A stretch of DNA of 64,000 nucleotides from Nitrosopumilus sp. (GTDB lineage Archaea > Thermoproteota > Nitrososphaeria > Nitrososphaerales > Nitrosopumilaceae): assembly GCA_965214775.1 (NCBI GenBank), contig OZ243974.1:2240001-2304000 (forward strand). The letters run 5' to 3'. The notes beneath the pieces were generated by a model. The model saw only the letters and a list, made by a program, of their open reading frames with translations, ran no database searches and was not told the origin of the DNA. The position numbers and the translations under genes were made by a program. Position 1 is the stretch's first letter. Each line of letters starts with the position of its first letter. Below are positions 9,646 through 57,496 of this stretch, one piece after another.

Positions 9646-10670
9646 CTAGTCATCTGCGTCCCTCTCCATCCATTTTGCGTCCTTCTTCCTGATCGCTTCC
9701 GTTGCCTCCTTGCTTCTAAACGCCAGAAGCGGCGTCTCACAGTTGGCAATGTCAAGCGAAAAGTGAAGCCTTCTCTCGTTGTAATAGTCCACGTACTGCC
9801 TCAGGCCGTCATAATGCCCTATCTCCTCCTCGATGGTGCGATGGTTTTTGCCTCGCAAGACAGCCAAAAGACGGGCAGGTCATAATGCCCTATCTCCTCC
9901 TCGATGGTGCGATGGAGCCTCTCCAGCTTGCCGTTGGTCTGCGGGTGATATGGCCTGGTGTTTATCAGGATGATGTCCCGTGTAAGCAGCTCCTCTTCAA
10001 AGAGCGTGGGCTGCCACGTCCCCATGCCGGTGCCGCCTTTGGAGGCCGCCTTTTTTCTGCCGTTCTGTCCTACAAAGCACGAGCCATTGTCAGACAGTAT
10101 GGATGCAGGCGTGCCAAACCTCTCGATCGCCAGCCTGAGTGTCATTACGGCGTTCTCAGAGGTGGCATGCTCAAATAGTGCGGCCCCCGTAATGCACCTT
10201 GAGGCATCGTCAAGATACGTGACTAGGTTGAGTCCCTTTAGGCGCGGATCCTTCATTTCATGCCAGTCCACATGCCACATCGCGTTGGAGTATTTGCGCT
10301 CAAAGCGGACGTATCCCCTCTTTTTTGATTTTGCCGCAGACGGAATCACCAGGCCGTTCTTCTTCATTATGCGGTATACTGCACGGTAGCTTGTATTGTG
10401 ATTGTGCCTCAGCCTGCCTGCGGTGCGCAGTACGCCTGTCGGTTCGCCCTCGTGCGTCCCGGTCACCAGACGTATCTGGGCTGCCGTGACCGGGACATGC
10501 GGCCTGCCCATTTTCACGCGCGTCGTACCTGTTGCCTGGAACCTGGCCCACAGCCTCCTTACATGCCTTGCCGTGATGTTCAGATCCTTGGCTATCTTGG
10601 AGGACGCGACGCCTTTCTTGCACTGTCTTACTAGGTACTGCCGTGACTCTTCTGTCAGTATTTTTTTCAT
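9646..10670 (-). pseudogene. IS481-family (rve-type) transposase frameshifted by a 71-bp duplication plus insertion
   Basis: WHVDW, YLDDASR, SDNGSCF, PYHPQTNGKLER; C-terminus (YVDYYNERRLH) continues in another frame. Confidence 0.9.
9808..9915. repeat. 37-bp exact direct repeat (9808-9844, 9879-9915) around a unique 34-bp insert
   Basis: gtcataatgccctatctcctcctcgatggtgcgatgg x2; insert tttttgcctcgcaagacagccaaaagacgggcag. Confidence 0.95.
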
Positions 10671-10782
10671 GGTTTTTCGTGATCGGTACAGCCTAAAATA
10701 GTCCGCTATTGTCCTCCTGATCCTAGGCGGACCGACTTTTCGTACAATAGAGCTGGCGGTTTGATCGTTTGAAAACCAAGAA

Positions 10783-12065
10783 GGCGTTGTCCGGAATTTT
10801 TCCAGAAATCTACCGATAAGCTTATAGATCATAAGCGCAGGATGCGACAACCTTATGGATCATAGGATCGACGTCCCCGTATCAATGAAATCAAAGACCA
10901 ACAAGAAGGAATCCAAGAAGGAATCCAAGAAGGAATCCAAGAAGGAATCCAAGAAGGAATCCAGCAAGACCAGCAAGAAAAAAAAGTCAGAGTACACGAG
11001 ACCTCCGGAATACTATGCCGAGTACGAGAAAAAAAGGAGAGAGGACAGCAAGAGGTGCGGCATCGGAATCAAAAAGATCCGCAAGATCCTCCTGTCCCTC
11101 CTCCATAACACAGAGCAAGAGGATGAAATTCCCTATCTTCTGTGCGTACTCGACATGGAGTACCGCGGAAACTCGTATCGCAGACACGTCGAATACATGG
11201 AGTCGAATCCTGGTTCAACTAACATGTACGGGCTCAAAAAGGTTCCGGCCAAGTCGACACTGCATGATGCAGCCGTAAGGATAGCTGCCTGGGACAAGTC
11301 GGTGCTAAGATCGGTACTCTCAGAACAGGCAGGCGCAGACGCCAGGGGAACGTTGCTTGGCGACTCTAGCGGTTTCTCCATAATGAGATACCACACATGG
11401 GAGGACGCAAAGAAGGGCGTCATATCCAGGCAGATGTTTGCCAAGCTGCACATACTGTTGGCCCCGCACGGCAAGATTGCCGCCTGCGAGGTGACGCCGG
11501 GCGAATTCCATGATTCCCCGGTGTTCCGTAACGAGCTGCTGCCGCAGGTTCCCAACGGCACAGGACACGTGATCCTGGATGCCGCATACGACTCGTATGA
11601 GAACTGCAGGGTCATAGCCGACGGAGGCAGAACCCCAGTGATATGTCCGCGTACAGGATATACGGTTCACGGGTTCAACGCCCGCTCCAAGATGCTAAGA
11701 TGGCACAAAAAGGACCCCGAGGGATTCGAGAAGACGTACCACCAGCGCAGCCTCGTTGAGTCGGCCTTCTCGTCGATAAAGGCAAGGTTTGACTCCACGG
11801 TGCGCGCCATGTCGCTTCCGATGCAGTCGCTCAGGCTTACCCTCAAGGTATTCTGCTACAATCTGGTCAGCTAGGATCCATAATGCCGGTACGGTGGAAT
11901 CGTCCGGCTAGCGGATGCTATGCAGTATGACGTCAAAACACGGGCCATAACTGCACAATGCGGGCCGGAGTGCGGATTCGTCTCTATGTTTGCAGTCATT
12001 GCGCCATGATTTTGTACAAATCTCCCCGGAAATCACGTCCTAAAATCACGATTCCGGACAACGCC
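10783..12065 (+). mobile_element. IS5-family element, 15-bp perfect TIR, 9-bp TSD AACCAAGAA
   Basis: ggcgttgtccggaat…attccggacaacgcc; aaccaagaa at 10774-10782 and 12066-12074. Confidence 0.93.
10855..11874 (+). CDS. IS5-family transposase with N-terminal (KKES)5 tract (12-bp tandem, 10903-10962)
   Basis: GDSSGF, KLHI, LDAAYDS, YHQRSLVESAFS. Confidence 0.92.
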   Translation: MDHRIDVPVSMKSKTNKKESKKESKKESKKESKKESSKTSKKKKSEYTRPPEYYAEYEKKRREDSKRCGIGIKKIRKILLSLLHNTEQEDEIPYLLCVLDMEYRGNSYRRHVEYMESNPGSTNMYGLKKVPAKSTLHDAAVRIAAWDKSVLRSVLSEQAGADARGTLLGDSSGFSIMRYHTWEDAKKGVISRQMFAKLHILLAPHGKIAACEVTPGEFHDSPVFRNELLPQVPNGTGHVILDAAYDSYENCRVIADGGRTPVICPRTGYTVHGFNARSKMLRWHKKDPEGFEKTYHQRSLVESAFSSIKARFDSTVRAMSLPMQSLRLTLKVFCYNLVS

Positions 12066-35416: not shown

Positions 35417-36085
35417 GGTAGTTTGATGTAGGCTTTGGCGTATTAGACTTTATGCGTAATCGACCGTGATTAAAAATTCCGTAGGCTTTTCCAAACGCAA
35501 ATGCGCTGATCGGATCAAATTACCGCATGCATCTCGTGTCATGACGCACGTAAAAGCCAGTTGCGCCAAAAGAACGTGCGCAACCATGCAGCACGGCAAT
35601 GTGCCCCGTTGACAAGTCAGAAAGAATGGCGGTCCGTACCGCCGTATGTCATGTGTCTGGCAGCAGATGCAGCTGCTGCAGCAGCTGGCCATAGTATTTT
35701 TTCCTTTTCAACATCGTCTTGAGGTTCTCAAGACCCGTGATTATCTGCATGAAATAATTGAGATCCTTGGCAGTTCCGCCAAACGGCATGGTAAGAATGC
35801 CATATCTTTTGAGCCGCCCTATGTGGTGCTCCACCCTGACGCGAACCCTGCTTATCTGCTTGCGGCGCCTCTTTTGCGTTGCAGTAAGATCCCCGTCCCT
35901 GGGCTTCTTTGGGGGCTGCCTGTTAGTCAATTCATAAAAAAACGAACAATTTTGACAACTGCTTTTGATCCAAACATTAAGATCAGGCAAACCATCGCAC
36001 ATGCATGGGAAAACAGGTAGAATTCGCAACATCAAGGGACAAATTCCTAGGCAAGCAAAGCACTCACGTCTTCGCAAGGCGTACT

Positions 36086-36218
36086 AGACCCGACAGTATG
36101 GAACACGACAGTTGTTGTGGCAGTAGTTAATTCGTGCATGGGGGGTTTGACATACTGCCACACAAGACCCGACAGTATGGAACACGACAGTTGTTGTTGC
36201 TGCTGCTGCTGCAGTAGT
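36086..36218. repeat. Direct repeat (33 bp exact, then gcagtagt) around a 37-bp unique segment, just 3' of the transposase gene
   Basis: agacccgacagtatggaacacgacagttgttgt at 36086 and 36165. Confidence 0.9.
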
Positions 36219-48312: not shown

Positions 48313-48400
48313 GTTCGTAGCAGGTCGGGCTCTGGAAGTTCATGTATGAATTTTGTCAGTAATGACTGCCGATCAAATAGAATTTGTTCGTAGCAGGTCG

Positions 48401-49023
48401 GGCTCTGGAAGTTCAGGCGCGAATCTTGCGACCTCGGAGGTCTCCCGGGCATTACCACTGGCCATCAGTAGGATTTGGAAAAATTACAACACATAAAGAT
48501 CACAGGATCTGTCTTTCCTGTATTGGTTGGAGATCCTGATATTATTGACATGGACTGGAACAATCCCGACGTACGCTGCCTGTTTGAACACATGAAGTCA
48601 AGGATGGAGAAGATTGAAAAAAGAAAACCAGCGACTGCAAAAAGAAAACGTGTAGCTAAGGACGCAGCTCGCACAGCAACAGTAGACAGCGGCCGCATCT
48701 GGATCCGGACCGGCTCTTCTGAAGGAGGAATGTAAGAGATCAAACCTCCGCGACTACAACATACGCAAGTTAGATGACTTTCCGCACCCCGAAAAGCCGG
48801 CCCCCAAAAAAAGAAACCCGATACCAAGGCCGTCATCCATACATGTTTGGTAGACATCAAGTTCTGTCCGACTGCAATAACAAGCTCCTGGCTGGTTTGA
48901 AGAACATCCAAAGGGCTAAGAAGGCAGCAGCTAGGATTCTGAAATCGATTCTTAATTTTAGGTATAAATTCTGATTGAACGATTCTTTTTGGTGGCAAAA
49001 TTAGTGCCTGAACTTCCAGAATA
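48401..49023 (+). mobile_element. Decayed IS with ~30-bp TIR (tctggaagttcaggc…), family unclear
   Basis: Inverted ends at 48404 and 49006-49020; fragmented ORFs; related ends at ~9605, ~48328 and ~49715. Confidence 0.6.
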
Positions 49024-54256: not shown

Positions 54257-56931
54257 ATGAAAGGTCAACCCTCCACATACTGTGAGATCGAGGCATCTAT
54301 GGCATCGTCGACGGAGAAGATACAGAGTCTGGAAAAGGGCATCAAGGAACGTGACAACATCATCAAGGAACGTGACAACATCATCAAGGAACGTGACACG
54401 ACCATTGAGAAACTAAACAACATAATCAAGGATCAGGGCAGCAGGCTCCGATACTATGAGAACGAGAACTCGCCCCCGTCGGCAGACTCGCTTGCGTGGA
54501 AGGAGCAAAAGGCACAGAGGAAAAAGGAGAGGGCCCGATCCGATGCTGCAGCCGGGAATGACGTAGTATCCTCGGCTACCAATTGATCACAAAAAGGACA
54601 ATTTTTTTCAACCAAAGGATCTAAGAGCTATTAGTCCCATATATACACATGAAAGGAAAGAAGGAATTACCGACGGGAACAGCGTTCCTGTACGGGATAG
54701 CAAGCAAGGACGAGCTTTTTAGGATGCACAAGTCCGAGAAGGACGCCAAGGCGGCAATCCGGCTCCTTGCATACCACATGAGAAAGTGCGGCGCGAGCAT
54801 ATATGATATTGCCGAGAAGCTGAGCAGGCCGTATGGAACCGTACGATACTGGCTGGTGCGTGCGCACAAGCATGGCCTGGAGGGCAGGTTTGACATAAAG
54901 CATGGCGCCCCGTGCAGGCTCGACAAGAAACAGCTTGAACGGCTGCGCGCAGACCTGATCAAGGGCCCGGACAACTGCGGCTTTAAGGCCACAACATGGA
55001 CAGGGCCGCTGGTCATTGCCCACGTCAAAAAGAAGTTCGGCATCACGTATGCAGAAACGAGCATGTACGACCTGCTGCACAGAATCGGCTTCTCATGCAG
55101 AAAGCCCAGGCCAAAACACCCAAAATCAGCCTCAGAATCCGAGAAAAAGGAGTTCAAAAAAAAGCTAGGCAGAGCGCAAAGTACTATTCAAAAAAGGGGT
55201 ACACGGTAATGATAGGCGACGAGTCCATGTTCATACTGGGATGGAACGTCAAGAACAGCTGGTACCCCGTAGGAGAGCCGGTCTATACGCCCGTCAGCCT
55301 GTCCAGGAAGCGGTTCTATGTCATAGGGGCCCTCTCAAGAAACAGGTTTGACTATCGCTTTTACGAAAAGGCCAACACGGGAACGTTCTACAAGTTTCTC
55401 AGGACACTGCGCCGCAAGTACGGCAAGGTGTTGTTGTTTGTCGACAACGCATCGTACCACAAGTCAGCAGAACTCAATAGAAAGATGGCCAAGTGGAACG
55501 GGGACGTGGTGCTAAAGTACCTGCCACCGTACGCGCCGGAGCTTAACAACTCGGAGGGGCAGTGGCGCGGGTTCAAAAAGGCGACTTCAAACTGCCTTTA
55601 CAAGACCGTCAAGGAGATGCAGAGATCACTGCGCAGTATGACGCGCAGGGGCGAGATAAAGGTGGTAAAGATGAACAAATGGCTGACGTAGATACTACGG
55701 CACCAGGAATAACAGGAAAAAGCCCGGCGGCCAAAAGGGCCACAAGGGCGTATCGCGCGTCCACCGGCCCACCCGGGTACAAAGGCACTACTTTCCGGGC
55801 GGACAGGCGCCAGAGTGCTGGTGCGGCACCACCACGAAGATCATGAACAGGCCGCAGACACGCGACATGATTGGATTTGAGATCAAGGCGATTGAGACTC
55901 GCCACGAGTCGCAGAGGGCAGTATGCCCAAAGTGCGGCACGTATCATATTGCCCCCAACGGCCTGCCCCGATGCGGCAACTACGACACGAGCGTGGTCAC
56001 AGCCGTCACCAAGCTGCGCAGCGAGGGCGTTCCATACAGCAGGATCCCAGGCATCCTGTCAGATATCACGGGTGTGGACATGTCAAAGTCAACTGCAATC
56101 AACAACGTGGGGCGCGTCTGCGAGGCCGCAAAGGCGCCTGCCGAGGCCATCGCAAAGGAGGTAAAGATCTCAAAGACCGTCTGCATAGACGAGACGGGGA
56201 TCAACCTGGCAGGCAAGACGGGATGGGTGTGGACCATACTGTCAGCAGCAGGCATACTCATGATATACAACAATACAAGGAAGGCCCTGGTTCTGGACCA
56301 GTACATGAGCGGGTACAAGGGTGTCGTCACATCAGACGGATATCCCGCACACAAGAGGTTCGATCCGGGGGGAAGGCACCAGCGGTGCTGGGCGCACGAG
56401 CTGCGGTCCCTCCTGTATGGTTCGCAGAAAAAGGACGCCCCGCTGTTTGCAGGGATCCTGTACCGGCAGGGGCAGCAGCTGTTCGGAGACGCCAAGACGT
56501 GTCTGGAAGGGTGGGACAAGCTGTCCCCTGAGGATCTCCTGGATCTTGAAGAGAGGACGGGAATAAGGGCCGCCGACGGGCTGATGGGCCGGCACTCGCC
56601 GGAGCTGCGCCGGCGGTTTGAGACCAACATGCGCAACGTCCTGTTCGGATACAGGGATACGCAGGACGAATCGTTGAAAGCTCTTGTCAGGCGGATGTAC
56701 AATGCCCTGCCTGGCCTGTTTGCATTCCTGGAATACGAGGACGTCGAGCCCACCAACAATTCTGCAGAGCGGGCGCTGCGCCCCGTCGTATTGCAGGACA
56801 AGATAAGCGGCCAGATCAAGGGCGGCCTGGTCTGGATGGACAGGTACGGATGGCTCAATACATGCACCTCGACGTGGAAGCTGCAGGGCAAGTCCATCAT
56901 GGTTGAGGTAGCCAAAATAATTCAGGGGTAG
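54257..56931 (+). pseudogene. IS66 transposase split at …AGND|GTRNNRKKPGGQKGHKG
   Basis: NSPPS, KPGGQKGHKG, CPKCG, IDET, SDGY, QRCWAH, PTNNSAERALR; 21-bp heptad repeats at 54340-54398. Confidence 0.92.
54564..55697 (+). mobile_element. IS630-family element C copy 2, CG duplicated; transposase split at the A8 tract (54649-55691)
   Basis: tgaCG[…]CGgcac; one A shorter than copy 1. Confidence 0.93.
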
Positions 56932-56943
56932 GTGACCTCATAC

Positions 56944-57496
56944 GTGCTACCTGTTCGCCTCGATGGACGACGATACGCGCTACTGGCTGGCCTCCGACTT
57001 GGCAGACAGCAAGTTCCAGCACAACGCGGATTCCCTCTTGGAGATAACCAAGAAGCAGGCAGGAAAGAATCCTAGGAACTTCATCACGGACGGCCTGCCG
57101 GCCTATGCCAAGTCCTCAAGGAAGGTATTCGGAAAGGGCACAAACCACGTGAAGCACATCCGTCTGGCAGGAAAAAGGGACAGTGACGACAACAAGATGG
57201 AGAGGCTCAACGGTGAGATCAGAGACCGCGAGAAGGTGTTCAGGGGCCTCAAGAAGATGGATACGGCCATACTTGACGGAATGAGTCTGTCTTTCACTGT
57301 TCTTTCTTCCACCCAGCTGTTCAAGAAGATGGATACGGCCATACTTGACGGAATGAGGGTATACTATAATTTCACAAAAAAGCACGGTGCACTGGACGGC
57401 CAGACCCCTGCAGAATCGGCCCTGATAAGCGTGGACGATGCGAACAAGTGGAAGACGATAATCCAGAACGCCTCACTAAGCAAGGATTCTGTCTAG
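56944..57496 (+). pseudogene. 5'-truncated IS6/IS240-like DDE transposase with an in-frame 72-bp duplication plus insertion
   Basis: YLFASMD, ITDGLPAY, NKMERLNG, YYNF..KH..L.G.TPAE. Confidence 0.8.
57249..57357. repeat. 37-bp exact direct repeat (57249-57285, 57321-57357) around a unique 35-bp insert
   Basis: tcaagaagatggatacggccatacttgacggaatgag x2; insert tctgtctttcactgttctttcttccacccagctgt. Confidence 0.95.

Follow-up and report, generated by a model that had tools for sequence, protein, structure and literature searches.

Putative scars of off-target spacer integration in the genome of a Nitrosopumilus archaeon

Direct duplications around inserted DNA are a familiar product of transposons and casposons, whose staggered cuts, once filled in, leave target-site duplications of 2–15 bp around a defined element with its own ends. 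The integrase of CRISPR adaptation can reportedly leave a related mark outside its arrays: Nivala, Shipman and Church are said to have described off-target integration and ‘neo-CRISPR’ arrays in Escherichia coli over-producing Cas1–Cas2 (Nat Microbiol, 2018). To go by the accessible parts of later texts, that study is said to have offered circumstantial evidence from two other species only (a citing preprint) and to have linked site preference to IHF (a citing paper). In vitro, Cas1–Cas2 of Pyrococcus furiosus integrates at non-CRISPR plasmid sites with joints one repeat length apart and a preference for G, according to the accessible part of that report (PMC6698737). Here we describe a repeat–insert–repeat unit at positions 57249–57357 of a 64,000-nucleotide (nt) stretch of DNA, the window, from Nitrosopumilus sp. 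(assembly GCA_965214775.1, contig OZ243974.1). The genome, G000 below, is a single contig (C1) of 2,833,656 bp, and the window corresponds to G000:C1:2240001–2304000. We read the unit as the scar of an ectopic (off-target) Cas1–Cas2 spacer integration, part of a natural fossil record of such events, and give this reading a probability of roughly 80%.

The unit, its empty sites and its donor

The unit has three parts:
57249–57285, unstranded: duplicated target sequence, copy 1; 37 nt, 100% identical to 57321–57357
57286–57320, unstranded: 35-nt insert, a spacer-sized copy of G000:C1:1086376–1086410, identical to this donor at 34 of 35 positions
57321–57357, unstranded: duplicated target sequence, copy 2; 37 nt, the repeat length of the CRISPR-2 array

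The two copies of the perfect direct repeat (TCAAGAAG...GGAATGAG) start 72 nt apart, and 28 of the 35 nucleotides between them are pyrimidines on the forward strand. An open reading frame (ORF; 56963–57496, forward strand, 177 amino acids) stays open and in frame across the unit, which makes it encode KKMDTAILDGM twice and adds a net 24 amino acids. A preliminary description made from the letters alone had already recorded this anatomy correctly, from the perfect 37-nt repeat and pyrimidine-rich 35-nt insert to the doubled peptide and the in-frame gain of 72 bp. Tandem Repeats Finder has no entry at 57249–57357, because only half of each such unit repeats. The unit is real and not a chance pairing, because periods of 70–76 nt dominate isolated direct-repeat pairs in G000 (42 of 48 when a single filter is applied over spacings of 50–200 nt).

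Homologous copies of the target show what the site looks like when it is unoccupied. Six paralogues (80–87% DNA identity) align across the site and carry a single 37-mer with no insert, and a systematic count at this site gives seven empty paralogues and none filled; empty sites here mean paralogues at that level of identity and not this locus as seen in a different strain. All 6 aligned paralogues have the T at 57321 as a native base, and the donor has an A after its ...CAGCTGT; the duplication is therefore 37 nt and the insert 35 nt, which sets aside the 36 + 36 partition that the preliminary description had entertained. The donor lies 1.2 Mb away inside a 75-codon ORF. Similarity between insert and donor ends exactly at both edges, the flanks being unrelated, and a TTT stands immediately 5′ of the donor on the forward strand.

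A public sequencing run, X4, contains a 95-nt unitig that spans window 57256–57350 with 0 differences, and the junction words therefore exist in reads. This unitig reaches 30 letters outside each junction, one letter short of a 31-letter bridging rule, and X4 is possibly the source sample of the assembly. The public runs, searched as contigs, hold the junction words, the donor locus and insert-free paralogues, which speaks to presence only and not to population frequency.

The preliminary description had suggested that the insert is spacer-like and had named ways to look further. Its reading gains from the empty paralogues, from the self donor with its 5′-TTT and from a second unit in the window (below). 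Alignment with family members gave seven paralogues without the unit and none with it, and inspection of the donor flanks for a protospacer-adjacent motif (PAM) found the TTT directly beside it. The proposed search for the insert in host and viral data succeeded in the host, at 1086376–1086410; among viral_contigs there was no exact match to the first 25 nt of the insert. An insert shared by homologues or lacking in reads would have told against that description; it is absent from the homologues, and its junction words occur in the public run.

Resident arrays and a genome-wide set of units

Two CRISPR arrays and one set of cas genes provide the standard against which the unit can be measured:
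G000 2420114–2425007: CRISPR-2, 68 repeats of 37 nt, spacers mostly 33–39 nt
G000:C1:1977219–1978062: CRISPR-1, 12 repeats of 36 nt, the last degenerate, spacers 36–39 nt
Beside CRISPR-2: type I-B operon, 591-amino-acid ORF–cas7–cas5–cas3–cas6b–cas1–cas2–cas4

The commonest spacer length in CRISPR-2 is 35 nt (25 of 67 spacers), and the 37 + 35 nt of the unit are the exact modal values of this type I-B array. The single cas1 of G000 (PF01867, 232 bits) has cas2 and cas4 adjacent in an intact set; the 591-amino-acid ORF in the large-subunit position of the operon matched no family. CRISPR-1 has no cas genes nearby and is an orphan array, and no type I-G cas1 gene (Cas4g/Cas1g) was found in G000. 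The duplicated 37-mer is transposase coding sequence, unlike either canonical repeat. Outside the arrays G000 has no solitary canonical repeat, at or near any unit or elsewhere, and nothing within 10 mismatches of one; the units are therefore not array fragments. No PAM can be derived for the resident system, because none of the 78 canonical spacers has a protospacer match in the G000 genome.

Both ends of CRISPR-2 are irregular. At the low-coordinate end (2420105–2420221) the first spacer closes with the 9 nt that precede the first repeat (AAGTCCATA). This makes the terminal duplication 46 nt long, leaves a remainder of 25 nt and gives a period of 71; it reflects either integration out of register or a unit duplication that was cut short. 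At the high-coordinate end (2424440–2424825) four spacers have aberrant lengths, 57, 29, 30 and 50 nt, and a decayed repeat lies within the one of 57 nt.

A seed-and-extend scan of G000 outside the arrays (duplications from 28 nt upward, inserts from 15 nt upward, period 66–80) returned 64 isolated direct-repeat pairs, of which 15 were dropped, leaving 49 units in 2.83 Mb. Their median duplication is 36 nt, median insert 36 nt and median period 73, with periods of 72 (11 units), 73 (15) and 74 (12) and the others between 67 and 76. The duplication is perfect in 42 of the 49, and the inserts all differ. Duplications of 35–38 nt account for 33 units, with modes at 36 and 37, the two resident repeat lengths. 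Fourteen units have empty paralogues (1–20 each) and no filled one, and the unit at 1275414, which adds 24 amino acids to a PMT-like glycosyltransferase, is without counterpart in a paralogue and in the homologues of three relatives. Targets fall in multi-copy DNA more often (33 of 49) than random positions do (264 of 600; p = 8e-4).

Donors set the units apart from the arrays. An insert was said to have a donor when a second place in the genome matched at least 85% of its positions; this holds for 14 of 49 inserts, perfectly for 6 of those 14, compared with 0 of 78 canonical spacers (Fisher p = 4e-7). Of the 28 flanks of these donors, 8 have TT at positions −3 and −2, where the background rate is 8.2% (p = 0.0014).

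The second unit in the window has the following layout:
9808–9915, unstranded: 37-nt duplication (9808–9844 and 9879–9915) around a 34-nt insert (9845–9878)

Its copies are 100% identical, with a period of 71, and its site has 17 empty paralogues and none filled. It lies within an rve-type transposase ORF (9819–10850, reverse strand) whose stop is inside the unit, and no donor for its insert was found in the genome. The preliminary description had pointed to an ‘IS481 case’ of like dimensions; this is that case, and at 37 + 34 nt it is indeed a unit of the same kind.

For the junctions, each unit was scored as two symmetric half-sites (98 in total); strand-flipping of about 50 sites in the manner of expectation–maximization gave no trustworthy orientation. 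As first duplicated base, 43 of 98 half-sites have G (p = 7.5e-6); 71 of 98 have a pyrimidine at position +1, and positions +5 to +7 are rich in A (39, 40 and 36 of 98). As far as base composition can tell, the junctions of the units resemble the canonical repeat ends (GTTTCAAT, GTCGTAAT and GCTTCAAT).

The lengths of the two parts are tied to each other. Across the 49 units, duplication and insert length are anticorrelated (r = −0.89), and the period has a variance of 2.7, compared with 13.2 for the duplication and 11.4 for the insert. The total added length is thus 73 ± 1.6 nt, while the duplication ranges over 28–46 nt and the insert over 26–43 nt. This spread is confirmed in part by donors and empty sites, and the extreme lengths are real and not errors of measurement: units 2701975 (apparent 44/32) and 2378877 (28/42) both have donors and empty paralogues, 1275414 (31/41) is confirmed by protein alignment, and at 849741 and 305641 the donors put the true split at about 41/33 and about 39/34. 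Selection for reading frame does not explain the rule, since units of period 72 are fewer than those of 73 or of 74. One possible reading is that trimming of the second prespacer end is coupled to the choice of the second target joint.

Among the pairs dropped from the scan, two repeated families (8 of the 64 candidates) have 6–7 paralogous copies filled and are different or older. One has a period of 75 (six pairs among the 64); the other, of period 79–82, includes window 36083–36200. At that place and in seven other copies in G000, a 33–39-nt direct repeat encloses a 43–46-nt insert with a 7-nt inverted repeat, inside a multi-copy element, with seven paralogues filled and one empty; an older insertion that was carried along as its element spread is one possibility, and it could be something different. 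Also dropped were four low-complexity or protein tandem repeats (1630738, 1630895, 2133530 and 2561212), two doubtful pairs (1690978, which has 4 mismatches; 801292, whose 46-nt insert stands in a 29-nt duplication with 2 mismatches) and window 48313–48428 (30 exact nt, period 73), where two termini of related multi-copy elements adjoin. At G000 1266834 a third repeat copy is possible, but it shares only 27 exact nt, has an indel and was not counted as making a two-spacer array.

The units also occur outside G000 and are not private to it. Cas1 was found in 24 of 61 genomes of the genus searched, G000 included, and two relatives were scanned for units: G017 over its whole main contig (1.94 Mb) and G051 over the first 800 kb of 2.39 Mb. 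G017 has three clean units (duplications of 38, 37 and 35 nt, inserts of 35, 37 and 37 nt, periods 72–74) and a further atypical one, and G051 has 6–7 units of period 72–73. At G051:C1:198815–198995, three copies of a 37–40-nt sequence enclose two different inserts (32 and 36 nt), which is an ectopic site used twice, a nascent two-spacer array. In the unit at G017:C1:782372–782482, a GC-rich 37-nt duplication is followed by ...GGGAGTTCAAATCCC, which resembles the T-arm of a tRNA gene; integration may there have duplicated the 5′ half of a tRNA gene and left one intact copy.

The gene that hosts the unit in the window, and its neighbour, are as follows:
56944–57496, forward strand: 5′-truncated IS6/IS240-family transposase remnant, host of the unit (ORF 56963–57496; PF13610 and paralogues)
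55843–56931, forward strand: IS66-family transposase ORF, which abuts and truncates the IS6-like remnant (PF03050, E = 8.7e-36)

The host ORF holds part of a DDE_Tnp_IS240 domain rather than a complete one, matching profile positions 43–122 of 139 in PF13610 with E = 2.3e-5 and 25 bits (cut-off 27). Its similarity to the paralogues begins at 56944, directly after the IS66-family element, and the 44 nt preceding 56944 recur at many places in the genome, as expected of the end of a multi-copy element. One paralogue has a 248-codon open frame, of which the window copy lacks roughly the first 90 codons. By its sequence the host gene is a dead transposase remnant, and not the intact IS6-like transposase of the preliminary description; the in-frame state of the unit, and its position just after the catalytic helix, therefore carry no functional weight. 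The truncation by the IS66-family element came either before the unit or in addition to it.

Several features of the genome at large stand beside these results. Another copy (at least 100 nt at 75% identity or more) exists for 264 of 600 random G000 positions, with at least five hits in 195. At 2.83 Mb, G000 is larger than all 60 listed relatives in the genus (0.7–2.4 Mb), and its GC content is 47%, against 35% and 38% in the two scanned. This suggests a massive expansion of insertion sequences under weak selection in G000, and this may explain the retention of so many scars. Five donors (at 2358344, 2405741, 2445016, 2516412 and 2615428) fall within 2.36–2.62 Mb, a stretch that includes the cas locus at 2.42 Mb. 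In unit 2776475–2776582, both the insert and its donor (2615428) contain GTCATTACGAC, the final 11 nt of the CRISPR-2 repeat, which may be chance or a decayed repeat at the donor.

Origin of the units

We propose that the unit in the window arose when a Cas1–Cas2-type integrase captured a 35-bp fragment of its own chromosome (1086376–1086410) beside a 5′-TTT and joined it to a target site inside a dead copy of an IS6-family transposase. Gap filling would then have duplicated 37 bp, as the CRISPR repeat is duplicated at each normal acquisition. The same process would have left about 49 scars in G000 and more in the two relatives. The duplicated 37-mer would presumably yield no CRISPR RNA (crRNA) and escape processing, because it is not a CRISPR repeat, and that would explain why a self-derived insert is tolerated at an ectopic site and never in a true array. 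If ectopic units make no crRNA, self donors in 14 of 49 units against 0 of 78 spacers would be the pattern that autoimmunity leaves.

Several points weigh against this proposal. The unit at 57249–57357 lacks the preferred G, its half-sites starting with T and C. The evidence for a PAM is incomplete, with TT on at least one side for only 6 of 14 donors, and the canonical spacers yield no PAM with which to compare it. To our knowledge, no published ruler model predicts an anticorrelation of duplication and insert, or duplications spread over 28–46 nt. Finally, the units of G017, with duplications of 35–38 nt, misfit its resident array, which has 30-nt repeats and stands beside its only Cas1; a lost module is therefore needed, and a solitary 36-nt repeat of the CRISPR-1 (I-G) type at 1535367 is its only trace.

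That last point leads to the strongest alternative, which keeps the chemistry, and is in this sense nested within our proposal, and changes the enzyme: a type I-G Cas4/Cas1–Cas2 module, since lost, would have made the units. We consider this unlikely for the unit at hand, though it deserves serious weight. In its favour, CRISPR-1 is an orphan with 36-nt repeats. In G051, G009 and G014, arrays of CRISPR-1-like repeats lie no more than about 2 kb from a Cas1 match, which sits in a frame of 557–577 codons; in G051 this match is a Cas4g/Cas1g fusion (NF049935, 750 bits) with Cas2 alongside, and the system there is therefore type I-G. That fusion is the only Cas1 match of G051, the genome with 6–7 units in 800 kb, and G017 combines its units of 35–38-nt duplication with the solitary I-G-type repeat despite an array of 30-nt repeats. 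Repeats of the 36-nt type occur in all three genomes examined (G000, G017 and G051), and the I-G cas genes have evidently been lost from G000 and G017. In G000 itself the commonest duplication is 36 nt (14 units), with inserts of 36–38 nt (mean 37.1) like the spacers of CRISPR-1.

Against the I-G module as maker of this particular unit stand its 37 + 35 nt, the modal values of the I-B array. Inserts in units with a 37-nt duplication are shorter (33–39 nt, mean 35.5, n = 10), resembling CRISPR-2 spacers, than those in 36-nt units (Mann–Whitney p = 0.007), although the comparison is confounded with the sum rule. The difference fits two enzymes, each with its own signature, the unit in the window then being an I-B event. 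Moreover, five 36-nt units look young, with perfect duplications and 100% donors (345230, 1372070, 1900928, 2725140 and 1266906), and no trace of an I-G cas1 accompanies them. A Cas1–Cas2 as maker, and the choice between modules, are thus what the sequence evidence suggests, and for this 37 + 35 unit the resident type I-B module is in our view about twice as likely as a lost type I-G one.

A second alternative does without CRISPR: some process of the genus, for example template switching in replication or repair, would add about 73 bp by local duplication plus a templated copy, and the agreement with CRISPR dimensions would be coincidental. The sum rule gives this idea its best argument, since the conserved quantity is the total of 73 ± 1.6 nt and not the duplication or the insert. 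The units of G017 also ignore the 30-nt repeat of their own array, and 6 of 14 donors have a possible junction overlap of a few bases with the target, such as CCGGA at 849741. The three genomes scanned for units all carry CRISPR repeats. We nevertheless regard the idea as improbable. Duplications of 35–38 nt in 33 of 49 units, and the peaks of both part lengths at the values of the resident arrays, would have to be accidents, as would junction bases like those of canonical repeat ends, the enrichment of TT beside donors and the presence of 36-nt-type repeats wherever units were sought. The G051 mini-array, with three copies and two spacers, is what repeated integration at one site is expected to produce. 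No repair process known to us leaves a stagger fixed at about 36 bp.

That the unit is an artefact of assembly or sequencing is hardly credible: the window comes from a single assembly, and the public run that holds the unit best may be its own source, but 49 units with different inserts, exact donors and exact empty paralogues, units of the same kind in two other assemblies and the X4 unitig over 57256–57350 with 0 differences all contradict it. A unit that is in frame (72 nt) inside a mobile-element gene might suggest a plain tandem duplication, a repeat within the coding sequence, or the mark left by a small mobile element whose target-site duplication is long. All of these can be dismissed with near certainty: the insert has no relation to the gene around it and is a copy of a distant locus, the 49 different inserts imply no shared element, the excess of periods 73 and 74 over 72 implies no selection for frame, and truly repeated families (periods 75 and 79) behave differently, with 6–7 paralogous copies filled.

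Ectopic spacer integration thus remains our preferred account of the unit. A wider claim, that misdirected CRISPR adaptation has left a genome-wide fossil record (49 events, plus those in two relatives), acts as an insertional mutagen and obeys the sum rule, we advance only tentatively, at slightly less than even odds. Were it true, the record would sample what adaptation captures where selection does not act against it, at least 14 of 49 inserts being self DNA, often insertion sequences. The integrase would be an insertional mutagen that adds about 73 bp to genes, including in-frame additions of 24 amino acids, and that can seed arrays. The sum rule, 73 ± 1.6 bp in total with parts varying by about ± 3.5 bp, would mean that the choice of the second cut and the trimming of the prespacer are mechanically coupled, and the anticorrelation is a testable hint on how the integrase measures.

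It is this genome-wide record that makes the unit far more interesting than a single site would be. With their donors and empty sites, 49 dated and mapped events would indicate where an archaeal adaptation module integrates when it misses the array, and would allow the mutational cost of CRISPR adaptation genes to their carrier to be estimated directly. The units would be natural starting points for the birth of new arrays. For annotation, such units are better described as scars than as mini CRISPR arrays or protein repeats.

Comparison with known systems

The units share with transposon and casposon insertions a direct duplication around inserted DNA. They differ in that their duplications are far longer and each insert is a different snippet of 26–43 nt. 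With canonical adaptation they share the repeat–spacer–repeat geometry, part lengths like those of the resident arrays and TT-rich donor flanks; unlike canonical acquisitions, they have neither leader nor CRISPR repeat, and their inserts are often self-derived (14 of 49, against 0 of 78). In the main texts of the literature consulted, such scars are reported neither for archaea nor on this scale, and the accessible part of a survey of thaumarchaeal mobile elements (PMC6563490) reports none.

The closest parallels are the two cases of off-target integration named at the outset, compared here on the accessible parts of the sources. As in P. furiosus, off-target sites agree with the repeat ends at certain positions (there G1, T2 and A6; here G0, Y+1 and A+5 to +7), although that work was done in vitro with a spacing of 30 bp, whereas here the events are fixed in vivo, with a mode of 36–37 bp and a spread of 28–46. 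As in the neo-CRISPR arrays said to form in E. coli, a spacer-sized insert stands at a chromosomal site outside the CRISPR arrays, with a repeat-length duplication on either side, and reuse of a site can start a new array, as the two-spacer mini-array of G051 illustrates. The E. coli work is said to concern type I-E in a bacterium under over-expression; the units described here belong to a natural archaeal genome with a type I-B system and possibly a lost type I-G one, and comprise 49 fixed events, 14 identified self donors and a sum rule. Off-target integration would thus extend from E. coli over-expression and in vitro reactions, where the accessible sources place it so far, to a natural archaeal genome. 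Read in this way, the unit at 57249–57357 is a new natural instance of known off-target integration.

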